Program-made: the position numbers and the translations under genes
Assembly (NCBI GenBank): GCA_016699085.1
Contig: CP064958.1
Span: 3,785 to 67,784 of the forward strand
Direction: 5' to 3'
Source of the DNA: Candidatus Nomurabacteria bacterium
GTDB taxonomy: Bacteria; Patescibacteriota; Minisyncoccia; Phycocordibacterales; UBA9973
DNA length: 64,000 nucleotides
Notes under the pieces: model-generated
Told to the model about the DNA's origin: nothing
The model's database searches: none
Seen by the model: the letters and a program-made list of their open reading frames with translations, nothing else
Part shown: piece by piece, positions 3,454 through 62,238 of the stretch
Layout: each line of letters begins with the position of its first letter
Position numbering within the stretch: position 1 is the stretch's first letter

Positions 3454-5583
3454 TTAAATATATCGCTTTTGAAGTCCCCAGGTAATGATCATCATCATGA
3501 CACCAAGTATTGCAACACCGCTTGTTGCAGCACCCGTCTGTGGCAATGTCTCAGCATTTGCGCCTAAGACTTCGCCGCCCGTTGCTCCGCCACCACCGCC
3601 AGCATTACTTCCATTTTCAATCTTTGCTCCAAGTACTGCTCCACCACCTGATGTCGGACGACTGCCACCGGTAACCGTACCGTAGTAAGTGCCCCCAGGA
3701 AGTCCTCCACCAGGTGTAGTGTTTGTACCACCAGTAGTATCTCCTCCATTGCCACCACCTCCGCTTCCGGGAATATCATCATTAGTTATAGTGCATGTTT
3801 TGTTTTCATCTAAGCCTATAGTGATCGATCCTGCACTGTCGCAATCTCCACTGTAACTAACCTCATACCCAGTAGCACCCGTCTCTGTTACTGTATATGT
3901 TCCGACATTGACACTAGCACTTACTCCAGAGACAACTCCTGTTGCTCCGACAAACAATGGGAAGTCACTAACGATTCCTGTGCCTCCGTTATTATTGACA
4001 ACGACTTTCGTAACAGTCACAGTGCCAGTCTGAGTTCCACCACCACTACCTCCCCCACCAGGATCTTCGCAAGAATCAGGCTTTGTGTAGTAAGCATAGA
4101 ATCCATCAGCCTTTGGTGTCGTATGCATTTCAAAATTGACTGCGTCATCTACTATAGAGAATGAATCCTTTTGTGTATCCTTGAGTTCCATTTTATTAAA
4201 ATCAACATCGTTCGTAACACCCATTAGTGCTGCATTCATGAATGTAAGTGCTCCGATCGTGTGTTCATGACCATCATCTGTATGATTTGCGTATTGATTG
4301 AGTCTAACATATCCATCATTTCGTTCTATAGCAAATCCTTGGACATCTTGGTAACTAGCTATATCAGGATCGATAACTGATGCTACGCTATTACCAATAT
4401 AGAACCATGTATCTGTTGGAATTTTATTTGCTAGTGTATTACCACCAACGTAAACATCACTCGTCATGTTCCCTGCACTAGTATTTTCTAGTGTGGTCAC
4501 AGACACTTTAGCAAATGCCTTATCAGTACATACATTTGTATTTTGACATTGTACTGTACAAGATTCACTGGCGCCGCTTGTGTCGCATGATTCCCATGAT
4601 TGATTCACAGTACCATCACCACAAAATGCAGGAATGAGATCCTCACCGCCTGTATCATCAACAGTGTCGCAATTCGCAATGCCGATTCGTAAGTGGTAGA
4701 GAACTCCTGCAGTATTCAAAAGTGGATCATCGCTACCTGCCATATTGGTCACCTCGATTTTGATTGTATTTGTGCCTGCATGTAGGATGCTTGGATCAAT
4801 ATCATACTTATCTTGAGTTCCTAAAGTATAATTATCCTCACTTGCATCAGCGCCAACAGCTATATCATTTACCCACACCTGATAGGAGTTATCAGCCGCA
4901 ATCATAAGCTGTGCCTTAAAGTAGGTTTCGTCAACTGGCAATGTAAAATTTTTCTCAAATGTCTTTGTTTCCGCAATGCTTGGATTTTGAACGAGAAGAC
5001 TATCCCAAATCCAGGTTGCATTGGGTACATCTGCACTCCAAAGGCCATGTTCTGTTGTTGCCACAGCATTACCACCACCACTAACAGTATTCGCTGTATT
5101 GCTTAGGACAATCGCAGCGTCCATTTGGCATGAGTCGCCATAGGTATCCTGAAATACATCTAAAAATGGAGAGTCACTGTCTTCGAGATTGCTCACATAT
5201 ATGACACCATCGATAACGGTTTGATTTTCGAAAGCTTTCTCACTAGATTGATTTATAGTTTTCTGTATGGGGGCTGTAAATATGTCTCCTATTGCAGCTG
5301 ACATTGAAAGTACAGTTTCAATGACTGATGGAGTTTCAACGACTGTTTCAGTTGGAGGCAGAACTTCTTCTGTACTAACTGTCTCGTCTGAGATAACGCT
5401 TGGTATAGTCTCCTCTGTCATTGGCACAATAGGAGGTACTACTTCAGTAACTACATTTTCGTCTTCAGCATATGCTCGAAATGCAAAAGTATCGCCAAAT
5501 GCAATAGTAATAAATAAAAGCATACTTGCTGTAAGTATCCAAATATAGGCCTGATTCTTTGCGAGAATAGAATATGACTTCAT
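3454..5583 (-). CDS. LPXTG-anchored cell-surface protein (Gly/Thr-rich, Cys-rich module, Ig-like repeats)
   Basis: Signal peptide; C-terminal LPQTG followed by hydrophobic segment and KRYI positive tail; low-complexity GGGSGGG linkers. Confidence 0.8.
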   Translation of the reverse strand: MKSYSILAKNQAYIWILTASMLLFITIAFGDTFAFRAYAEDENVVTEVVPPIVPMTEETIPSVISDETVSTEEVLPPTETVVETPSVIETVLSMSAAIGDIFTAPIQKTINQSSEKAFENQTVIDGVIYVSNLEDSDSPFLDVFQDTYGDSCQMDAAIVLSNTANTVSGGGNAVATTEHGLWSADVPNATWIWDSLLVQNPSIAETKTFEKNFTLPVDETYFKAQLMIAADNSYQVWVNDIAVGADASEDNYTLGTQDKYDIDPSILHAGTNTIKIEVTNMAGSDDPLLNTAGVLYHLRIGIANCDTVDDTGGEDLIPAFCGDGTVNQSWESCDTSGASESCTVQCQNTNVCTDKAFAKVSVTTLENTSAGNMTSDVYVGGNTLANKIPTDTWFYIGNSVASVIDPDIASYQDVQGFAIERNDGYVRLNQYANHTDDGHEHTIGALTFMNAALMGVTNDVDFNKMELKDTQKDSFSIVDDAVNFEMHTTPKADGFYAYYTKPDSCEDPGGGGSGGGTQTGTVTVTKVVVNNNGGTGIVSDFPLFVGATGVVSGVSASVNVGTYTVTETGATGYEVSYSGDCDSAGSITIGLDENKTCTITNDDIPGSGGGGNGGDTTGGTNTTPGGGLPGGTYYGTVTGGSRPTSGGGAVLGAKIENGSNAGGGGGATGGEVLGANAETLPQTGAATSGVAILGVMMMIITWGLQKRYI

Positions 5584-13861: not shown

Positions 13862-13896
13862 TTCCTTATTGCAGTGTTTTGCAAAATGCTAGTATG
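13862..13896. repeat. 35-bp conserved motif copy E
   Basis: ttccttattgcagtgttttgcaaaatgctagtatg; immediately followed by perfect hairpin ctaggaaggt-aag-accttcctag (13898..13920). Confidence 0.8.
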
Positions 13897-13916
13897 TCTA
13901 GGAAGGTAAGACCTTC

Positions 13917-13991
13917 CTAGACAGGTTTCGGCACCTCCCCAATTTGTAAAACTTCAGGTGGGCCATATTTTTTACAAAGTATTGCTTTCAT
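13917..13991 (-). pseudogene. 24-aa remnant of the N-terminus of a zinc-type alcohol dehydrogenase / quinone oxidoreductase (MDR) gene
   Basis: Minus strand encodes MKAILCKKYGPPEVLQIGEVPKPV then stop; classic MDR N-terminus; leader aaaaatgctaaaataaatttATG resembles leaders of neighbouring cassette genes. Confidence 0.4.
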
Positions 13992-37088: not shown

Positions 37089-37187
37089 TACACTATAAAA
37101 TTACAAATGTCAACAAACAAAATCCGCTCAAGAGCGGATTTTGTTTGTATTTTCTATTTACTATTCACTAATTACTTTTTACTTTAT

Positions 37188-38671: not shown

Positions 38672-38729
38672 TTTATAAACCCCGTTTTTAAAATTTTAAA
38701 AACGGGGTTTATGATTTACATACCATAAA

Positions 38730-47243: not shown

Positions 47244-47939
47244 CTAATCAAGCCAGCCTTTTACTTTTAATGCTTCTTGGGCTGCCTTCTGTTCAGCTTC
47301 TTGTTTTGATTTACCTTTGCCTTGTGCAATAAGTTCACCGCCGAAATAAATGCCAGTGGTAAAGTGCTTATCATGATCGGGACCACTCTCTCCCATAACA
47401 CGGTACAGTGGCGTCACGCCGAAATATTCTTGTGCACGTTCTTGGATCAAACTCTTTGGATCGCGCCATAGCTTCTTGGCAACAATCTCATCCATCAAAG
47501 TAAAAAGTTCATTTGCAATAAATTCTTTTACCGCATCGTAGCCTTGATCAAGATAAATAGCACCCAAGTAGGCTTCAAAGGTATTCGCGAGTATGTATTG
47601 CCTCGCTTTGCCCATATCTTTTGACTCACCTTTAGACAGGAGCAGGAATTCATTCATACCAAGTTTTGTAGCAACTTCTGCAATCGTATTAGCATTAACG
47701 AGTGCTGCGCGAAACGATGTGAGTTCCCCCTCGCTATGGTTTTCGTATTTTTTATAGAGATAGTCCGTGACAACAAGTTCGAGTACTGCATCACCGAGGA
47801 ATTCTAAGCGCTCATTATGCCAAAGCCCAAGCCCCGGATTCTCGTTAATATACGAGCGGTGAATGAACGCCTGCATTAACAGCTTCTTATCGTTGAAAAT
47901 AGTTTTTGTTTTTTGTTCAAATGCTCCAAAATCAATCAT
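47244..47939 (-). CDS. rnc: Ribonuclease III
   Basis: ERLEFLGDAVLELVV RNase III signature, C-terminal dsRBD. Confidence 0.9.
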   Translation of the reverse strand: MIDFGAFEQKTKTIFNDKKLLMQAFIHRSYINENPGLGLWHNERLEFLGDAVLELVVTDYLYKKYENHSEGELTSFRAALVNANTIAEVATKLGMNEFLLLSKGESKDMGKARQYILANTFEAYLGAIYLDQGYDAVKEFIANELFTLMDEIVAKKLWRDPKSLIQERAQEYFGVTPLYRVMGESGPDHDKHFTTGIYFGGELIAQGKGKSKQEAEQKAAQEALKVKGWLD

Positions 47940-52082: not shown

Positions 52083-52108
52083 TCCATCTCAAAGACAAAT
52101 AATAAAAG

Positions 52109-52132
52109 CCGCATATATGCGGCTTTTATTAT
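52109..52132. terminator. Bidirectional terminator
   Basis: aagccgcatat-atgcggctt perfect palindrome flanked by A/T runs between convergent genes. Confidence 0.7.
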
Positions 52133-52138
52133 TGCTCC

Positions 52139-53794: not shown

Positions 53795-54174
53795 TATTTT
53801 TTAGCCTTGGCTTCCCTGCTGTATTCCCAGATCTGTTTGATAACACCGATTGATAAGAAATAAAATGCAAAGGTTGCTACTCGCTCGGCCGTTGCATCTG
53901 TTATAACGAACATAAACTTAGTCAAAATCAAAAGTATCGGAATAAGAATGAGACATACCAATGCGCACGTGATAGCAAATCTCGAGTCAATATGCCAGTA
54001 GAATAATGCCGTTGCAAATGCCAAAAATACTCCCCCTTCGAAACTCAAAACTACAGTACCCAAAACAACAACGAGCGCAACTAGGCCTGCACCTATATAG
54101 TCACGCTTGTGTAATGTTGTGAGCCACCCATAGACATCACCAGGAGTTAGTAGATAGTCAGTAAGTCTTGCCAT
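53794..54174 (-). CDS. Small 4-TM membrane protein (GtrA-like?)
   Basis: 126 aa, overlaps downstream gene start by 1 nt (operon). Confidence 0.45.
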   Translation of the reverse strand: MARLTDYLLTPGDVYGWLTTLHKRDYIGAGLVALVVVLGTVVLSFEGGVFLAFATALFYWHIDSRFAITCALVCLILIPILLILTKFMFVITDATAERVATFAFYFLSIGVIKQIWEYSREAKAKK

Positions 54175-54268
54175 AATGTATACAGCCTAGCACGAAAACT
54201 ATCGAGTCATAAGCACTTTACAAAAATGGTGATGAGAGTACAGTACAGAGGAACCTAAACCTCTTTAT

Positions 54269-54784
54269 ATGGGAATCTACGGAGAAATTAAGGCAAGACC
54301 AGAAAAATACACCGTAAACACTATGGACGTTGGAGATATAGCATATTTAGATCCAAGTGAAATCATCATTACAAGAAAAGCTATTATTGTTGATTTATTA
54401 TCGTATGTGCTATTTCCTGAAGATGTAACAAAAAAAGAAATTACAACTCTGATACAAATTAAACGTATTGGAAGTGGAATAACTGAAAAGGACTTCATGC
54501 TCTACTTTCCAAAAAAATTAAATTTTGTTTTTATTATAAGAGGAATGGGTGTATATTTTGAATCTCTGGACGAAAAAATGTTTAACGTTATATTCTATAC
54601 ATTCCACCTTGACTTAAGTTACTGGCCCCGAGATGAAGAGGAGAAAATCGCCCCATCCATAAAAGAAGTAGATCTTAAACAAGCATTGAATCATGCAGTG
54701 GAAACTGAAAACTATGAGGAAGCTATTCGACTTAGAGAGGAAATAAGAAAGAAAAAGACACAAAATAAAAACCCTAAAAGCTGA
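54269..54784 (+). CDS. UVR-domain-containing protein
   Basis: C-terminal ALNHAVETENYEEAIRLREEIRKK resembles UvrB/UvrC UVR motif. Confidence 0.5.
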   Translation: MGIYGEIKARPEKYTVNTMDVGDIAYLDPSEIIITRKAIIVDLLSYVLFPEDVTKKEITTLIQIKRIGSGITEKDFMLYFPKKLNFVFIIRGMGVYFESLDEKMFNVIFYTFHLDLSYWPRDEEEKIAPSIKEVDLKQALNHAVETENYEEAIRLREEIRKKKTQNKNPKS

Positions 54785-54866
54785 TCGCAAGATCAGTTTT
54801 TTCTTTTGACAAATACATAGTTTAGGGTAGGATGATACTGTTTTTCGTTCATTTAAAACTATACCC

Positions 54867-55631
54867 ATGATACACATACCTGCTTATGTCATAGCCATAA
54901 TGCCCAATAAAACCAGAAGGTTATTCATTAATGAAAAAGTCGCAGCACAATGTGGTGCTCGTGTTATTACCGAAAGTCCAAGCAGTACAATCTTTGAAAC
55001 CAAGGCAGAATTGCGCGAAGCATTGAAACTCGAAGCCCGTAGAAATACTATCGAAGCTTTTATGAAAACCGTGGGTCACTCAAAAGATAGAGGAAGAATT
55101 GTGACGGTTCTGTCCTATACACCGGAAGAATTCTCAACATACCTCACAGCAAAAGGTATCAAAGTAGGTACTGCCGGTACATTGAAAAATCTGATGGTAA
55201 CCAAGGGTTACTTTACGTTCTTTGACTTCCTAGAGCGAATAAGTTCACAGAAGCTCGCCAGCATGATCGGTTACGGAGATACATATATTCATACTATTCG
55301 ACAAGTTATTGAAGAAGAAAAAATTCCATGGGAATTAATATTCAAAAAAAGGAAACCGAGGAAAATGAGTAACGAAAAAATTAAAGCTCTACTTAAAAAG
55401 CCGATAGCTGATCTTATCGAACTGGGGCTTGATCATAGAATATGCCTACGCATGCAACGTACTACTGGCGCGAAAAATCTGAGGGAGTTTATTACTAGCA
55501 AACAAGACTACGAAAACAAGGGCGAAGAAATCCATAGTTTTGGCAAAAAAGCTTTGTTAGAATTGGAAAATTTTTTGGAAGACAGAGGTATACCACGAGA
55601 TATTGACCTCAATAAATACTTTTCTGAATAA
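54867..55631 (+). CDS. Hypothetical protein with helix-hairpin-helix-like C-terminus
   Basis: 254-aa ORF. Confidence 0.45.
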   Translation: MIHIPAYVIAIMPNKTRRLFINEKVAAQCGARVITESPSSTIFETKAELREALKLEARRNTIEAFMKTVGHSKDRGRIVTVLSYTPEEFSTYLTAKGIKVGTAGTLKNLMVTKGYFTFFDFLERISSQKLASMIGYGDTYIHTIRQVIEEEKIPWELIFKKRKPRKMSNEKIKALLKKPIADLIELGLDHRICLRMQRTTGAKNLREFITSKQDYENKGEEIHSFGKKALLELENFLEDRGIPRDIDLNKYFSE

Positions 55632-55708
55632 GTTTATTTTTACTTTACACCAGCGAACCTGGTGTATTTTTATTTTTATTTTTTAGTACCATATCGTTTC
55701 TCATACAA

Positions 55709-55760
55709 TTTGCTCCTATAATCTATATATACGGCCGTATATATAGATTATAGGAGCAAA
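55709..55760. repeat. Perfect 52-bp palindrome
   Basis: tttgctcctataatctatatatacgg|ccgtatatatagattataggagcaaa, zero mismatches, no spacer. Confidence 0.9.
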
Positions 55761-55806
55761 AAGTGAAGAATTAGAGGATTAGGGGTTAAAGTGGTCGATG
55801 GTATCA

Positions 55807-55835
55807 TTGACTTTTCTATTAATTTATGCTATGCT
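55807..55835 (+). promoter_or_regulatory. Sigma-70-type promoter P0 (TTGACT-N17-TATGCT)
   Basis: Same architecture as P1-P3 downstream. Confidence 0.5.
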
Positions 55836-55872
55836 GTTTGCATTCATTGTTCATTGATAAAAAAGTATACAC

Positions 55873-56241
55873 ATGCAAAAGATAACCTTAAAGTCATTTA
55901 GAGATTCCAATCTCGGGTTAATCATCTGGGTTTTGGGATTAGTGTTTGGAGAAATATTAAAATTTATATTCTCCCCTTTTGTGTTTATGTTTTCACCCTC
56001 TAGGAAACTTGCATACAAGCTTGCCTGCTCAAAAAAATTCGTATACTGGCGTAAAATCACCAGAGATGGCAGTGTTATCACTGTAAGTGCCCATCATGGG
56101 CATGCTGAAAAACCTGAATTCGTGCAAATATATGAATTTGATACATCAAATAATACATACGAGGAATACAGAAATACCGACAACGGTAAACAGAACCACA
56201 TAAAAGGAACGCTGAAAGTAGGAATAAAAAAGTTCACCTAA
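55873..56241 (+). CDS. Hypothetical small membrane protein
   Basis: 122 aa, N-terminal TM helices. Confidence 0.5.
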   Translation: MQKITLKSFRDSNLGLIIWVLGLVFGEILKFIFSPFVFMFSPSRKLAYKLACSKKFVYWRKITRDGSVITVSAHHGHAEKPEFVQIYEFDTSNNTYEEYRNTDNGKQNHIKGTLKVGIKKFT

Positions 56242-56253
56242 AAACAAACCCAG

Positions 56254-56556
56254 ATGCAAAACATTACCGAGTTCGAAAATTTCCTTTTCGCTAATCTATT
56301 GGGTTACGTAACGAGAACTGCTACCTCAAAAAAGGAGGCAGATAATTTTTTTCAAACGTTTAAGAAAGACCTCAACAAGCAGGTCTGGGATCTGCTCGAA
56401 GAGCATGATGTAGCTGTGTTTGTACAAATCAACGCAGCAATTGAGGAACTCAGGGATTACTCACTGGGTTTTGGTGATAAAGAAAAGTGGTGTCTGCGTT
56501 TTGTAAATAATCTCAAGACGCATACGCAAAGTGAAACATTTGAGTATAGTAACTAA
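56254..56556 (+). CDS. Hypothetical small protein
   Basis: 100 aa, 12 nt after previous gene. Confidence 0.5.
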   Translation: MQNITEFENFLFANLLGYVTRTATSKKEADNFFQTFKKDLNKQVWDLLEEHDVAVFVQINAAIEELRDYSLGFGDKEKWCLRFVNNLKTHTQSETFEYSN

Positions 56557-56585
56557 TATCATATTGCCAATATGGCCATAAGCAA

Positions 56586-56615
56586 AAGCGATCGCACGAT
56601 CGCTTTTTATTTTTC
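56586..56615 (+). terminator. Rho-independent terminator
   Basis: aagcgatcg-cac-gatcgctt + tttttattttt. Confidence 0.65.
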
Positions 56616-56630
56616 GATCCCAATTTTTGG

Positions 56631-56668
56631 AAAAATAAAAAGCATCTACCTAGTAGATGCTTTTGTTT
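56631..56668. terminator. Bidirectional terminator
   Basis: agcatctac-cta-gtagatgct flanked by A-run and T-run. Confidence 0.65.
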
Positions 56669-56682
56669 GTATCATTTCTTCT

Positions 56683-56784
56683 CTAATCACTTGCCATGAT
56701 AGCAAACATGAGGAACAGGAAACCGAGGAAGTAACAACCTGTGAAGAATAAGACAAAAGCTACAACAAAAAAGAAAAGTGCCAT
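56683..56784 (-). CDS. 33-aa hydrophobic peptide MALFFFVVAFVLFFTGCYFLGFLFLMFAIMASD with its own promoter and terminator
   Basis: Minus-strand ATG..TAG; upstream TTGACT-N17-TATAAA promoter (about 56838..56866 minus strand); ends at bidirectional terminator. Confidence 0.35.
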   Translation of the reverse strand: MALFFFVVAFVLFFTGCYFLGFLFLMFAIMASD

Positions 56785-56896
56785 AGTCTGAAAATTTAGG
56801 TTAAGAAATTTTTTATTTTGTTTGATATATTTATAGCATAAATATATAGTAAAGTCAATACAAGCCTTCTATCTTAGTATTTAAAATATAGATTAT

Positions 56897-56924
56897 TTGA
56901 CTTTTTGATAATTCACTATATAAT
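56897..56924 (+). promoter_or_regulatory. Sigma-70-type promoter P1 (TTGACT-N16-TATAAT)
   Basis: tattTGACTttttgataattcactaTATAAT 15 nt upstream of ATG 56940. Confidence 0.6.
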
Positions 56925-56939
56925 CCAGAAAACGACAAA

Positions 56940-57383
56940 ATGAAAAATAGAGTACTCCCCGCAAGGCCATACAGACCAGACACACTCGGATCTATGGGCA
57001 AGGCCAGCAGCATGATCGTAAGGCAATACCAATTCCCCCATGAATACCAAGAGCATGAAAAGCTCGTATTTACAGATCATGATCGGTGCATACAAGCCAA
57101 CTACGATCAAGCAATGGCATGTATCAGAAAGCATACACAAAGAGGAGATTTAGGATTAGAATCTTGGTTCTTAAAATCCAACGATGAGAAGATACTGACT
57201 TTCCTAATAGAATTTCTCGATGTCAAAGATGGAACAATGTGGACAGGATACCGCATCAGAGGATCAGTTAATCAAAGCGATGGTGGTGCAATCTGGAGTT
57301 TGGAACTTTTTGCAAAAGCACCAGGCAGTAGCACAGCGGTATATACAGGCACAAAAGACGTACCAAATGTATATGACTATTAA
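56940..57383 (+). CDS. Hypothetical protein
   Basis: 147 aa. Confidence 0.5.
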   Translation: MKNRVLPARPYRPDTLGSMGKASSMIVRQYQFPHEYQEHEKLVFTDHDRCIQANYDQAMACIRKHTQRGDLGLESWFLKSNDEKILTFLIEFLDVKDGTMWTGYRIRGSVNQSDGGAIWSLELFAKAPGSSTAVYTGTKDVPNVYDY

Positions 57384-57404
57384 TTAAAAATGTGCACAAC
57401 AAAA

Positions 57405-57432
57405 ACAGCTCTCCCAGAGCTGTTTATTTTTT
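57405..57432 (+). terminator. Rho-independent terminator
   Basis: acagctct-ccc-agagctgt + T-run. Confidence 0.65.
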
Positions 57433-57479
57433 ACTTTACTCGTATGTGCCAATGTGTTACTCTTGGCAAAATTACGTAC

Positions 57480-57794
57480 ATGGAACAAGCAACCACGAAA
57501 AATACTAGTCAGAAAAAATTTACTTTTTTCGAGAGTTTACTATTACCTTTTTGGAAACGAGATGCTTACAAAAAAGCCAAGGAACTAATCACTACTCCCA
57601 ACACGAAGCAAATTGACATAATCCGAGCAATTAGAAAACTTTCTGATTACCACATATATGACAAAAAAGGCAATGTGGTAGGAAATCCCTACTACATAGA
57701 GAAAGTTATGGATGTAGTTGAGGAACACAGATATGATGTATTGGATCGAATAGCGAGAAACAATCTTGCTGAATTCGAAACAGATTTTGCTTAA
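57480..57794 (+). CDS. Hypothetical protein
   Basis: Start taken at MEQATTKN after terminator; track start 57390 lies inside the terminator. Confidence 0.45.
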   Translation: MEQATTKNTSQKKFTFFESLLLPFWKRDAYKKAKELITTPNTKQIDIIRAIRKLSDYHIYDKKGNVVGNPYYIEKVMDVVEEHRYDVLDRIARNNLAEFETDFA

Positions 57795-57838
57795 TGCACT
57801 GCATACAATGCAAGTACAATCTTATTCGAAATCTACAG

Positions 57839-57867
57839 AACGCTGACCATATGGGCAGCGTTTTTTA
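57839..57867 (+). terminator. Rho-independent terminator
   Basis: aacgctg-accatatggg-cagcgtt + tttttt. Confidence 0.65.
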
Positions 57868-57889
57868 TCTTGCCATTTATTTGAGTATA

Positions 57890-57917
57890 TTGACTTTTTG
57901 ATAATTCTATATATAAT
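57890..57917 (+). promoter_or_regulatory. Sigma-70-type promoter P2 (TTGACT-N16-TATAAT), near-identical to P1
   Basis: tatatTGACTttttgataattctataTATAAT. Confidence 0.6.
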
Positions 57918-57932
57918 ATAGAAAAATAAAAA

Positions 57933-58238
57933 ATGTTCGACTGTTCTAAGAATATATACAAAAAGTTAACAATTACACTTTTCAACGGTGTGGAAATATC
58001 TGGCTATATCGGAAAATCTTCCAAAGATAGCGCATTTTTACCGCGAGTATTTCAGACATACCTAAAGGAAAAATTTGGCGTACTAGAACATGAGTGCACA
58101 GCAATGATCATTGCTGGTGACCCAATAAAGATGAGAGTGTTCCCCGAGCGGACACCATGGGCATGGCGTAGAATGGCGGAAAAGGCTGCCAAGAAAGTCA
58201 AGTGGGAACAACTCCCCAAGGTATTTGATTCCAACTAA
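57933..58238 (+). CDS. Hypothetical protein
   Basis: 101 aa. Confidence 0.5.
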   Translation: MFDCSKNIYKKLTITLFNGVEISGYIGKSSKDSAFLPRVFQTYLKEKFGVLEHECTAMIIAGDPIKMRVFPERTPWAWRRMAEKAAKKVKWEQLPKVFDSN

Positions 58239-58283
58239 GATTTTATTTAACGAAACCGACCTACTGACAAAACAGTACGGTCA

Positions 58284-58350
58284 CGTGGGAGCCAAAGGAG
58301 GCTCCCACAATATGGATAATCCTTACCGAAATTTGGTAAGGATTTTTTAT
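58284..58350 (+). terminator. Tandem hairpin terminator
   Basis: gtgggagcc-aaaggag-gctcccac and ataatccttacc-gaaatttg-gtaaggatt + T-run. Confidence 0.6.
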
Positions 58351-58394
58351 TTTCCTACTTCCCTACTTTTGACTTTCAACTTTATTTGAAGATA

Positions 58395-58423
58395 TTGACT
58401 TTTAATAAAATAAATGTTAATAT
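58395..58423 (+). promoter_or_regulatory. Sigma-70-type promoter P3 (TTGACT-N17-TAATAT)
   Basis: gatatTGACTtttaataaaataaatgtTAATAT. Confidence 0.55.
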
Positions 58424-58443
58424 ATACAAAAAAGAAAACTGTT

Positions 58444-58935
58444 ATGAAAATACACTTCCCGATTACTTCTGCTGAATTTGTTGTTTTACATGCACAAATG
58501 AAACAAAAAAGAGGGAGAAATCCTTCGCTTAGTTTTGCAGGAATCAAAAATCCAAAGAGAGCGCTACAGTTTGCAAAATCGGTTGCATCTTTCAATACAA
58601 AACCTGCAGCCCCTCCTCCTGGAGATAAGGTGATCATACTGCCGAACCAAGAAGAGATGCTCGAACGCCTCATGGCAGTTGATGACAACCCGCATACCGT
58701 GCGGGAGTTCTATCCAAAACTACTCAAGTACGCAGGACAGAGAAAAGTTGCCGCGGGCATAGTCATGATGGCTGAACTTGCTTTGTTTGACTACACGAAA
58801 GGCATGCCTGACTTCATGTTTTCAGTAATGAATATGAGGATGCCTGAATACATAGACGCTCTTACCGATGACAAAGTAGTCGCAACTGAAGCTAAGAAAA
58901 TTCTTAAAGAGGCATTAGTAGCCACAACTGCATGA
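58444..58935 (+). CDS. Hypothetical protein
   Basis: Start taken at MKIHFP downstream of P3; track start 58414 lies inside the -10 element. Confidence 0.5.
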   Translation: MKIHFPITSAEFVVLHAQMKQKRGRNPSLSFAGIKNPKRALQFAKSVASFNTKPAAPPPGDKVIILPNQEEMLERLMAVDDNPHTVREFYPKLLKYAGQRKVAAGIVMMAELALFDYTKGMPDFMFSVMNMRMPEYIDALTDDKVVATEAKKILKEALVATTA

Positions 58936-58963
58936 TCCGTTTGAAAGTCTGTTAATTCACAAA

Positions 58964-58992
58964 ACGCTGTACCTTATGGTCAGCGTTTTTTA
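58964..58992. terminator. Terminator shared by convergent genes
   Basis: acgctg-taccttatggt-cagcgt + T-run. Confidence 0.6.
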
Positions 58993-61900
58993 TTTTTCTA
59001 CTTCCTTCTTTTTGAACCATCTCTTCACTTGTAACTTTTTACTTGTCACTAGTAGATACCCTACACAACCAAGCAGTGTTACCCCCGAGATTAGCACTCC
59101 AATCAAAAAATATTTTTGTGGTTTATATTCTAAAACAATATTTACTAATCCCGTATCTTCGATCCAAAATCCATTAATTGTAGAATAGATTTGCTCAGAT
59201 TTATATATATTTTTATCTATAGTAGCGACCCAGGAAGGATCAAAGCTCTCAGTAAATGAAAGGAGGAACGGTTTATTTGTTTCAATTATAAGTTTGTATT
59301 TTGTTGGGCCTATTTTTTTTACTTCTATAATATTTGTTTCAGAGTCATTTAATGTTTCTAATAATTTAGAGGTTGCCTTATTGGATTCATTTAAATTAAT
59401 AACTTTAAATTTATCTAGTATTTGATTATAAAATTCATTCTCACTATTAAATTCTGCTTCGGTTGCAAATAACACCTCCCCGATTGCATTGAAACCCATA
59501 TTATTTTTAATTCCAAACAAATGCTCACCTTTATCTAATTCGAAAGGGATTTTCTGTGACCAGGAAAAATTATTCGAGTAATCTTTAGTTTGTATTGTTG
59601 TTAAATAATTATCATCAATATAGACATCGAAATTACCTCCATTTTCGTTTTTTAGATATTTAATAAAAAATAAGTAACTTTCATCCTTATCTAAAACAAA
59701 AGGTAATTGCATCATATTTGGTTCACGATATTCATTTAGATTGTATAAGGAAAAATCCTTCATCTCAATTTTAACTGAAGAAGTGATATCAATATCATCT
59801 TCATACCAAATTTGAATTTGTATAAAAGATGTATCTACATTTGTTGGAGTAATATAAATTGATTGTTTTTCCCAGTTAGATGTTCCATTTTCTATAAATT
59901 TTGCAATTTCTCCAAATTCACTACCTATATGTGTTTCATTAGCGTCATATTCAAATAATTTTACATGCACAGAAGAGGCATTCGAAGTTTTTATACTGAA
60001 ATTAAATTTTGAGTATTCATTATATTGCATCGGAATCAAGGGAGATTTAATTGTTTTCCATCCTTGTGATGGAGCCTCAAGTTTGACTATAAATCCTCCA
60101 TTAATTTCATTCATGTACAACTTTTGCTCCTTAGTTAAATTAGTTTCCCATCCTATAGATATATCTTCTGAATCTTTAACAGACAGAAATTTAGTGTCGT
60201 TTGATAAATTAAATTTTGGTAATATCGACGGAGCACTTGTGTAAAAAAAACCTTTTCTATTTGTAAAATCAGTATAATCAATCCAAAGATCTTTTTGCTG
60301 GTTTTTTAAAATAGTTAACCACGATCCAATCTTTTGTGTAAACTTCCAACCAATTACTTTATCAATACTGTCTGGTGGCAACACAACATCTATTGTTGAT
60401 AAAGGTGAAAAGATTTTTTTATTCATCAATAAATCTTCTTTATCGAAAGTATCTATAAACTGAAATTGATTATCACCGTGTAGATTTTTAACATATGGGC
60501 AGTTAATATTGTCAGGTATTAAAATTTGATTAGAAAAAATTGTGCAGTTATTGACAGTAAATAGATCAGCAGTTATGCCGTTTAGTTTAAAAAGATACCA
60601 ACCATCCTTTTCATAAATTAAAGACATATTTTTCTTCATACTATCGAGAGCTTCATTATCGATAGAATAATATCTATCGTTATGGAAAACTACATAACCC
60701 ACGCCAAGAACTGACAGGTAGTTATAATAATCATTTCTATTAAAAAGATTCGCTGCATACGGGATATCATATAAATTTTCAACAATATAATTGTAATTCC
60801 AATTTGTATTGTATGTAGGATTAATTGATGATTTCATGTCAAATGGTCCGATCATGTGACCTTCACTCCACGAAGTTTTAATTTCTCCATACCTTGGATA
60901 CCAAAGGACCTTGTATGAGTCTGGCTTTTCCTTAAGTAAGTCTGTGATTTCATAATAAGGACTAGGAATTTTTATTGGATTCATAGAATTAATATTCGAA
61001 TCAATGATCCCGAATATACTAGATCCAATTATAATTAGACTAAAAATAACACCTAAAAAAGTATTTGCTCTAATATTTACTAACTTTACAAATTTATACT
61101 TATAAAGGAGGGAGTTAGCACTTAGGGCAAATAATATACTTAGGAAAAAAACTTGATACAACTGAAATTTCAACGGAGATCTAAAAATCCATCCTATTGG
61201 GGTCGAATCAATGAACCACCAATAAAAACCCCCTGCTAAAGATTTTTGGCCAAAGGCTAGTAAAGTACAAACTAAAAAACCAATTGAGGCGAACCAGATT
61301 ATTTTATTTTGTTTTTTAAAATAAAGTATGAAGAAACTCAAAAATAACACACCATATAAAGAAAAATTATGAATTACTTTATATAATGCATTGTCAGGAG
61401 TAGTTTTTATATACGTAAATCTATCCCTTTCAGTAACCAATATTCTAGCTAAGTTATTATCAGACACTATTTCGAATGTATTTTTTTCAACATTAGATGA
61501 ATGACCTAAATCGACACTATTTTTCAATCCGGATGATATATACGGTAAAATAAACCAAAGAAAGAGTGCCCCGAATAAAATTGCGATTAAACTAAAATTC
61601 CTAAATTCACGAATTATATTGGATTTCAAGACTAACACAGAGAATACAAAAGAAACGATCAAATTCATTATTAAAATAAAAGGATGACCAACTGAAAGTA
61701 ATAGAGTCAAAGCAAATAAAATAATAAATTTTTTGTAATTTTTTTCTGAGTATCTAAGAATCAAAAATAGCAAAAGTGGAAGTACCCCAAGTGAAAGAAT
61801 AAGCGATATTTCCCAGAAAAATTGAAGAGGTGTGGGGCTATATGCAAAAAAAAGTGAACCCAGTATTAGAGGAACAAAAGAAAAATTTGAATATTTAATT

Positions 61901-62238
61901 TTTAACCTATTAAACAATTCTTTAAGGAAAATAAACATGAAAAAACTAACACAGGCATAGGTGATTAAAGGCATTAATTTAAGAATAACTTCTACATTTA
62001 AGCCCAAATAAGCCATAAGTATATACGGCAATCTTGGAACAAGTCTAATTAACTGCTCAAGATTTGATTGAGATGTTAAATCATTCCAAAGTGGGAAATG
62101 ATATCTTATGAAACTCTCTTTAAAAATTGGGAAATTAAAATCCCTTTGAATAATTACACCGTTTTGTAGAAAAAGATAACCAAAAACTAAGATTGCGATC
62201 AGAGTAAATAAAAAAAAGTAATTTCTATTTTTAAACAT
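58990..62238 (-). CDS. Very large polytopic membrane protein with big extracytoplasmic domain (YfhO/GT-C-like?)
   Basis: 1082 aa, about 12 N-terminal TM helices, C-terminal TM; adjacent to polysaccharide-modifying genes. Confidence 0.6.
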   Translation of the reverse strand: MFKNRNYFFLFTLIAILVFGYLFLQNGVIIQRDFNFPIFKESFIRYHFPLWNDLTSQSNLEQLIRLVPRLPYILMAYLGLNVEVILKLMPLITYACVSFFMFIFLKELFNRLKIKYSNFSFVPLILGSLFFAYSPTPLQFFWEISLILSLGVLPLLLFLILRYSEKNYKKFIILFALTLLLSVGHPFILIMNLIVSFVFSVLVLKSNIIREFRNFSLIAILFGALFLWFILPYISSGLKNSVDLGHSSNVEKNTFEIVSDNNLARILVTERDRFTYIKTTPDNALYKVIHNFSLYGVLFLSFFILYFKKQNKIIWFASIGFLVCTLLAFGQKSLAGGFYWWFIDSTPIGWIFRSPLKFQLYQVFFLSILFALSANSLLYKYKFVKLVNIRANTFLGVIFSLIIIGSSIFGIIDSNINSMNPIKIPSPYYEITDLLKEKPDSYKVLWYPRYGEIKTSWSEGHMIGPFDMKSSINPTYNTNWNYNYIVENLYDIPYAANLFNRNDYYNYLSVLGVGYVVFHNDRYYSIDNEALDSMKKNMSLIYEKDGWYLFKLNGITADLFTVNNCTIFSNQILIPDNINCPYVKNLHGDNQFQFIDTFDKEDLLMNKKIFSPLSTIDVVLPPDSIDKVIGWKFTQKIGSWLTILKNQQKDLWIDYTDFTNRKGFFYTSAPSILPKFNLSNDTKFLSVKDSEDISIGWETNLTKEQKLYMNEINGGFIVKLEAPSQGWKTIKSPLIPMQYNEYSKFNFSIKTSNASSVHVKLFEYDANETHIGSEFGEIAKFIENGTSNWEKQSIYITPTNVDTSFIQIQIWYEDDIDITSSVKIEMKDFSLYNLNEYREPNMMQLPFVLDKDESYLFFIKYLKNENGGNFDVYIDDNYLTTIQTKDYSNNFSWSQKIPFELDKGEHLFGIKNNMGFNAIGEVLFATEAEFNSENEFYNQILDKFKVINLNESNKATSKLLETLNDSETNIIEVKKIGPTKYKLIIETNKPFLLSFTESFDPSWVATIDKNIYKSEQIYSTINGFWIEDTGLVNIVLEYKPQKYFLIGVLISGVTLLGCVGYLLVTSKKLQVKRWFKKKEVEK

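Follow-up and report, generated by a model that had tools for sequence, protein, structure and literature searches.

The perfect 52-bp palindrome at 55709-55760, as judged from comparative analysis of sequences, is a real, constrained and dispensable hairpin-forming non-coding element of a narrow Nomurabacteria clade. It forms the centre of a non-coding module of about 125 bp, single-copy and confined to this lineage, which lies between the terminator of one gene and the promoter of the next. We tentatively favour the possibility that the element would act as a plus-strand RNA stem-loop, an RNase III-type substrate in transcripts that read through or arise in the intergenic region, with a conserved purine-rich tract after it. 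The window, i.e., the whole stretch of 64,000 nucleotides that was analysed, belongs to the bacterial chromosome of Candidatus Nomurabacteria (CPR/Patescibacteria) and not to a phage; it includes genes for rpoB, rpoC, dnaG, RNase R, an SMC-like ATPase, a type I restriction system, RNase III, NusB and RNase HII, and has no near match among phage records. The features that matter for the argument are:

47244-47939, minus strand: RNase III gene, with Ribonuclease_3 and dsrm domains
54867-55631, plus strand: upstream 254-aa ORFan gene (p254), of a family restricted to a narrow lineage
55646-55685, plus strand: intrinsic terminator of the 254-aa gene, with stem TACACCAG-CGAAC-CTGGTGTA and then a long T run
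55646-55666, plus strand: the terminator hairpin proper, strong
55686-55708, plus strand: conserved pyrimidine-rich 5' flank, ..ACCATATCGTTTCTCATACAA
55709-55760, no strand assigned: perfect 52-bp palindrome
55709-55734: arm 1 of the palindrome, TTTGCTCCTATAATCTATATATACGG
55735-55760: arm 2 of the palindrome, CCGTATATATAGATTATAGGAGCAAA
55761-55792, plus strand: purine-rich tract, conserved GTGAAGAATTAGAGGATTAGGGGTTAAAG, made of degenerate tandem GGATTAG-like 8-mers; absent, with the rest of the module, from the relative L012
55793-55820 (scan site 55793-55812), plus strand: weak terminator-like hairpin with T-rich tail, overlapping the -35 box of the next promoter
55807-55835, plus strand: sigma-70-type promoter of the 122-aa gene, TTGACT-17-TATGCT with a TG extension
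55842-55863, plus strand: 5' leader of the 122-aa gene, invariant ATTCATTGTTCATTGATAAAAA with tandem TTCATTG; context, outside the palindrome module
55873-56241, plus strand: downstream 122-aa gene, with a hydrophobic N-terminus, found 3' of the module in all palindrome-bearing relatives

The two 26-nt arms are 100% complementary and are separated by 0 nt, with CGG of one arm meeting CCG of the other at the centre; direct sequence comparison thereby confirms the zero-mismatch, zero-spacer repeat described in the initial annotation. The TATAAT hexamer that had been noted in each arm is likewise there, at 55717-55722 on the plus strand and as its mirror copy on the minus strand. The palindrome is intergenic, the 254-aa ORF stopping at 55631 and the 122-aa ORF starting at 55873. 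It has T at its 5' end, A at its 3' end and an AT-rich stem, and the stem is followed by AAAAGTGAAG on the plus strand and by TTGTATGAGAAA on the minus strand, with a T-run on neither. Folded as a single strand, it gives a stem of 24 bp closed by a GGCC loop (-21.8 kcal/mol and z = -10.8 for the DNA fold; -33.6 kcal/mol for the hairpin alone as RNA). This is the longest perfect hairpin of the 64-kb window; the runners-up have stems of 19, 18 and 17 bp and the terminator-like order of A-run, GC core and T-run. As its length had suggested, the palindrome is not a product of chance: the longest perfect stems in 30 mononucleotide shuffles of the window measure 9-14 bp, and none exceeds 14 bp against the 26-nt arms observed. 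The arm occurs once in the window, with no second copy in the 64 kb at up to three mismatches and no match of any kind in 100 shuffles by the same pattern search, and the orthologous site was the sole match of a covariance model (R1) searched against the window and the relatives' loci.

Two ordinary identities were tried for the palindrome and rejected. An intrinsic terminator was taken to be a GC-rich stem with a U/T tract within 0-2 nt; the scan does not call the palindrome, no T tract follows its stem, and the true terminator of this region is the hairpin at 55646-55666. The window's bidirectional terminators at 38675-38712, 52098-52133 and 37113-37148 resemble the palindrome in being perfect, intergenic and of zero or short loop, but they are built of A-run, GC core and T-run, and two of them are located between plus- and minus-strand ORFs. 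A sigma-70 promoter was taken to require both -35 and -10 boxes with at least 4/6 matches each and a spacer of 16-18 nt. The consensus scan finds none in 55640-55800, and the overlapping or divergent promoters suggested by the initial annotation are not called in or around the palindrome, where the best -35 candidates, TCGTTT on the plus strand and TCTAAT on the minus strand, 17 nt upstream of TATAAT, match the consensus at 2-3 of 6 positions. Real promoters of this island carry TTGACT as the -35 box. Another perfect hairpin of the window, at 13895-13923, has a 13-bp stem and a 3-nt loop (TGTCTAGGAAGGT-AAG-ACCTTCCTAGACA), with no T-run after it.

The relatives of this region are 15 loci on metagenome contigs, with seven distinct intergenic versions. 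The palindrome is found in six of these versions, and the six distinct palindrome-bearing sequences represent about four lineages. The loci, with the percent identity of their p254 proteins, are:

L001-L003, p254 99%: differ from the window palindrome by a single substitution, which makes the fifth pair counted from the centre T·G
L014, p254 93%: roughly 23 pairs, interrupted by several mismatches
L004-L006, p254 78%: 20-bp stem, with an 11-nt deletion in the left arm
L007-L011 and L015, p254 62-63%: stems of 21-23 bp
L012, p254 62%: entire module missing, a gap of about 110-125 bp between terminator and promoter

An assembly artefact, against which the initial annotation had cautioned, is refuted by the occurrence of the same repeat in independent JGI and Logan assemblies of other samples; the Logan assemblies are short-read, and these copies (L001-L011, L014 and L015) have strain-specific substitutions and unique syntenic flanks on both sides. 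Independent assemblies that run across the site with unique flanks exclude both an artefact of assembly and a hairpin-telomere junction. Within this set of relatives, the palindrome is perfect in the present strain only, and the perfect state is, by this comparison, recent, since one pair is still T·G in the 99%-identical sister strain, which has G at 55739 where an A completes the palindrome of the window. The element is missing from L012, and the other copies are imperfect. L012 retains the genes on both sides along with terminator, promoter and leader, and at the junction there remain about 14 nt resembling the 5' flank of the module, which would fit a deletion of the module. Since the module is missing there while its neighbours are kept, the element is, on the evidence of one relative, dispensable.

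Neither the 20- and 22-mers of the core, nor a degenerate arm pattern, nor the purine tract matched any viral or genome contig, and the invariant terminator 20-mer had no match in metagenome_contigs; protein-anchored scans for more relatives returned a partial contig (L013) or nothing. The flanking genes have a similarly narrow distribution. Homologues of the 254-aa and 122-aa proteins occur in a handful of metagenome contigs only; the p254 family is found in this clade and, beyond it, as two distant homologues, and the 122-aa protein is 100% identical to NCBI IPF86_00305 of Candidatus Nomurabacteria bacterium. The C-terminus of p254 is weakly similar to the RNA polymerase alpha subunit in its C-terminal domain (9n9p_A, E = 0.048), and the AF2 model of this protein (pLDDT 75) gave no structural match. 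PHROG and PADLOC searches of the neighbouring genes gave no matches.

On either side of the module the sequence is held very tightly. The terminator stem and the start of its T-run are invariant in all relatives, L012 included, and the -35 box, the -10 box and most of the spacer of the 55807-55835 promoter are identical in all of them, again including the palindrome-less L012. The 25-nt terminator core (55646-55670) and the 22-nt leader are invariant though the flanking proteins of the relatives are 53-68% identical; for a terminator stem, such invariance is unusually strict, and the leader at 55842-55863 may be a regulatory site.

Inside the module, the 5' flank holds a -10-like TACAAT (TATAAT in relatives) and can lengthen the plus-strand stem by about eight G·U-rich pairs with 55763-55771. 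The hairpin at 55793-55820 (alignment pairs 118-124 with 129-135) has one-sided, wobble-compatible changes only, and could be the 3' end of a module transcript. The module is non-coding, with no conserved ORF on either strand and with indels that are not multiples of 3. A hidden small ORF was rejected: the 19-aa hydrophobic ORF that starts with ATG at 55799 and a 19-aa ORF on the minus strand are both unconserved in L007, L015 and L012. Also rejected was a role of the purine tract as a Shine-Dalgarno or standby site, as no Shine-Dalgarno motif precedes any of the 47 ORF starts of the window. In many genes of the window, a TATAAT-like or TGnTAnAAT box stands 7-15 nt ahead of the ATG, an arrangement suggesting that many of their mRNAs are leaderless or have very short leaders.

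Comparison of the relatives indicates that pairing between the arms has been kept. In the six-variant alignment (152 cells), 94.1% of cells are paired on the plus strand, against 29-57% in controls with the partner slid by 1-3 columns; on the minus strand, 92.1% are paired. At four pairs both sides have changed and pairing is kept (C-G to U-A in three sequences, G-C to A-U in two, C-G to A-U in one, and C-G to U·G to U-A), and none of 500 shuffles reached the observed covariation score. Wherever arm 2 has a substitution, arm 1 has a matching change; 14 of the 26 pairs are invariant, and the TATAAT/ATTATA blocks are unchanged. Wobble-compatible positions are almost evenly divided, four favouring the plus strand and three the minus strand, and the compensatory substitutions expected of a structured RNA are present equally on the minus strand. 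The alignment data show that intrastrand complementarity, or dyad symmetry, is preserved; with near-equal numbers on the two strands, they distinguish neither the strand nor RNA from DNA.

Equal pairing statistics on both strands are also what duplex DNA predicts. A site acting at the DNA level, where the palindrome and the GGATTAG-like repeats would bind a dimeric or tetrameric regulator and either modulate the 55807-55835 promoter or insulate it from the upstream gene, is in our judgement an unlikely explanation. It would agree with the position of the palindrome upstream of a promoter, its centre about 107 bp before the predicted start of the 122-aa transcript, and with the 14 of 26 pairs that never vary, the TATAAT/ATTATA blocks among them. 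The arm, moreover, resembles the spacers of island promoters, and its 11-mer ATATAGATTAT is repeated exactly at 56886-56896, where it abuts the -35 box of the p147 promoter. Possible regulators are hinted at by the alpha-CTD-like DNA-binding domain in p254 (E = 0.048) and by matches of p134 and p147 to SarA (E = 0.0023) and AbiEi (E = 0.019), yet all these matches are weak and every DNA-binding assignment is below the family threshold. The palindrome shares with operators of dimeric regulators the dyad symmetry, the location before a promoter, the invariant blocks in the arms and a related 11-mer at another promoter of the island, but its 52 bp are two to three times their usual length, there is no spacer, and the compensatory changes are spread over the entire arm. 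Arms of 26 bp far exceed known half-sites, and two-sided compensatory changes along a whole arm are unexpected for recognition by a protein. Arm 1, furthermore, tolerates mismatches and, in L004, an 11-nt deletion, while the remaining stem is still paired; and the promoter is identical in L012, which has no site.

Quasipalindromes can be perfected by template switching, an established mechanism of mutation (PMC7202029; the concept is also in 10.1101/2023.04.19.537475), and AT-rich promoter-like DNA could have turned into an inverted repeat without function, the symmetry of which is kept during replication by copying one arm from the other. Its source would perhaps be a decayed cassette promoter, and the perfect state its latest correction. 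The lineage of the window and L001 has a cluster of changes in arm 1, all restoring complementarity to an unchanged arm 2, as such copying would produce. The 5' flank plus arm 1 of L007 and L015 (ATAATTCACTCCTATAAT; L007 coordinates 4871-4888) closely match the p147 promoter (GATAATTCACTATATAAT) over its spacer and -10 box; considered with the recurrence of the arm 11-mer, the match suggests either a common ancestor or a binding motif in common. Promoter-gene cassettes come and go in the island, and the module is missing from L012 while its neighbours are not. Like the E. coli thyA hotspot quasipalindromes (PMC7202029), the palindrome is a short inverted repeat whose arms are separated by few or no nucleotides, in which mismatches are converted to complementarity and the perfect state is one substitution away from that of the sister strain. 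Those quasipalindromes, however, are functionless hotspots, whereas the non-palindromic flanks of the palindrome are conserved above the neutral level.

The neutral reference for this statement was the set of 4-fold degenerate sites in five flanking genes, compared between the window and L007, where identity is 0.53-0.63 in four of the five genes and 0.87 in p206. Between the same two sequences, 95 of 121 aligned positions of the module are identical (79%, five blocks summed), and the whole intergenic region is 84% identical, as compared to 75-76% for flanking coding DNA. Non-palindromic parts are as conserved as the arms, with 21/25 positions in the 5' flank and 24/31 in the purine tract; template switching leaves this excess over the 4-fold identity of 0.53-0.63 unexplained. 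In comparisons of the window with relatives for which 4-fold identity is 0.46-0.71, the purine tract is identical at 24-25 of 31 positions. Long perfect palindromes are, in addition, prone to deletion, yet the element persists across lineages with 62-66% identical neighbouring proteins. We consider a functionless, self-correcting repeat quite improbable. The conservation of the module speaks for a function or, at the least, against mere neutral decay, and the functional or structural constraint proposed in the initial annotation is likely, given the conservation of the orthologous site with compensatory changes.

The module lies within a low-GC (about 36%) island of plus-strand ORFan genes at 54200-58950, in which there are no Pfam or PHROG matches. 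Several of the island genes have their own promoter, and TTGACTTTT occurs four times, at 55807, 56897, 57890 and 58395; there are 16 terminator-like sites in 54000-59500 where 3.4 are expected. L001 and L002, which are 99% identical, have an extra cassette of about 530 bp, consisting of a promoter and a 133-aa gene (L001 12022-12585 compared with window 56892-56924). A promoter segment of about 33 bp is duplicated on the two sides of the cassette, which suggests that cassettes may be gained and lost by recombination between repeated promoters. The 59-aa ORF at 56572-56751 contains terminator hairpins at 56584-56607 and 56638-56664, and this stretch is probably not a gene but a region of tandem terminators that follows the 100-aa gene. 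A sharp mosaic boundary is seen at 54174-54269: L007 proteins p551, p126 and p206 are 88-90% identical to those of the window (89% in the case of p126, the neighbour of p171), and the adjacent p171 is 41% identical. Protein p101 is 79% identical between the window and L001, which are otherwise 98-100% identical. Variability resumes after about 56.5 kb, past the 122-aa and 100-aa genes. Farther on, at 58990-62238, a 29% GC stretch encodes a 1082-aa multi-pass membrane protein; its gene adjoins pyruvyl- and glycosyl-transferase genes and, in L001 and L002, is broken into two or three ORFs, through frameshifts or because it has become a pseudogene, and the region looks like a variable surface-polysaccharide locus.

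Differences between strains in the surrounding island might bring to mind a site of DNA transaction at the module boundary, be it a recombination or resolution site, a protelomerase or hairpin-telomere junction, an origin, or the end of a mobile element such as a foldback MITE. A perfect, zero-spacer, AT-rich palindrome with a GC centre recalls the targets of protelomerases, of which telRL of the N15-type linear plasmid prophages is perfect, AT-rich, about 50 bp long and with a short GC-containing centre. In length (within the 40-60 bp or so that mark these sites), perfection, base composition and centre the palindrome is like telRL, but it is embedded in a continuous chromosome with no nearby protelomerase, contig breaks or inverted flanks, it does not stand at a replicon end, and it is imperfect or absent in relatives; a hairpin telomere was rejected. 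At least 14 contigs of independent assemblies run through the site with unique syntenic flanks that are not inverted copies of each other, and no recombinase, transposase or protelomerase was found among the 11 ORFs tested in 51.5-58.9 kb; the recombination, resolution or telomere site envisaged in the initial annotation finds no backing here. A REP, MITE or foldback element was also rejected, as there is one copy by pattern search (64 kb, up to three mismatches) and by the R1 model (window and loci), and neither a terminal inverted repeat nor a target duplication appears at the junctions with the empty site of L012. Viral, plasmid, phage and genome collections gave no match, those of phages and plasmids being searched by megablast/blastn, and a phage or plasmid origin was rejected as well. 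Nor does the suggestion of a replication origin or iterons hold: GC skew has no inflection, the cumulative curve falling without a turning point; DnaA boxes are at chance level, with no cluster and none nearby; the site is in one copy; and L012 does without it, where a dif locus would be a 28-bp Xer site shared by all relatives. Both oriC and dif were rejected. That the palindrome marks where an inserted module begins or ends finds no support: the 122-aa and 100-aa genes adjoin it in all relatives, the fast-evolving, low-GC island starts some 1.5 kb upstream (at about 54.2 kb), and L012 keeps both flanks without the palindrome module; the palindrome is inside the island, and the variable boundaries are elsewhere, at about 54.2 kb and after 56.5 kb. 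We regard a DNA-transaction site as very improbable.

The favoured reading, a plus-strand RNA stem-loop, would have the following course. The transcript, either a read-through product past the upstream terminator or started at a weak promoter of its own, would contain a perfect duplex of 24-26 bp, extendable to about 34 bp by G·U pairs of the flanks, then the purine-rich tract as a single strand, and then the weak terminator-like hairpin. A perfect duplex of 24-26 bp is a classic substrate of RNase III, and the enzyme encoded in this genome would act on the stem in trans. Because the long perfect duplex is such a substrate and the gene for the enzyme is in the genome, we propose as the outcome the processing or insulation of transcripts that enter the downstream cassette island; a stable 5' hairpin of a small RNA would be the other possible outcome. 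Base pairing that is kept through evolution speaks for intrastrand pairing, i.e., for a nucleic-acid hairpin rather than two protein half-sites, and within this tentative reading we infer that the element acts in that way.

Several observations bear on the choice of strand. The fold of the plus-strand RNA is better than that of the minus strand in all six variants, by 1.4-11.6 kcal/mol, and RNAalifold extends the helix by eight G·U-rich pairs on the plus strand only. As a hint of the plus strand the extension is weak, there being no two-sided covariation in it and slid controls pairing at 42-67%, because a T-rich flank faces a purine-rich one. Long dsRNA stem-loops processed by RNase III include lambda sib, the rnc leader and the transcribed Correia-element hairpins of Neisseria. 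With these the palindrome shares a stem of at least 20 bp, an intergenic location, the lack of a U-tract, compensatory changes and the presence of an RNase III gene in the genome; it differs in that it comes after a strong terminator and not in a mapped transcript, and its transcription and cleavage are predictions. Correia elements, moreover, are multi-copy MITEs, whereas the palindrome is single-copy. Against an RNA stem-loop are the place of the element 3' of a strong, invariant intrinsic terminator, with no consensus promoter before it; the wobble pairs, which favour neither strand; the 14 of 26 invariant pairs, which also allow sequence-specific recognition; and the existence of L012, which lives without the module.

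The layout of a long stem, an unpaired purine tract and a weak terminator-like hairpin resembles that of a small RNA or an extended 3' UTR. The more specific idea that the module (about 55690-55820, plus strand) is an undescribed small RNA or RNase III-processed regulatory RNA of CPR/Nomurabacteria is doubtful, and we assign it a low probability; such an RNA would consist of a very long perfect 5' duplex, a conserved purine-rich seed GAGGAUUAGG and the weak terminator. In Rfam, no family reaches its threshold on the palindrome, and in the window tRNA-Thr alone does; the palindrome scores 25-36 bits with miRNA-precursor models, as any long hairpin would, compared to thresholds of 60-245. If true, the small RNA would control or insulate fast-evolving promoter-ORF-terminator cassettes in an organism free of Shine-Dalgarno motifs and rich in leaderless genes.

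With one locus in one small clade, the reach of the finding is narrow under either a functional or a mutational explanation. If the palindrome is a self-correcting quasipalindrome only, it would be a natural example of perfecting by template switch in an uncultivated lineage. To our knowledge, almost no regulatory RNAs or cis-elements have been characterised in bacteria of the Candidate Phyla Radiation, and the palindrome module, placed at the entrance of a hypervariable cassette island, gives a clean case, in this group, of a non-coding element the pairing of which is visibly maintained across strains.
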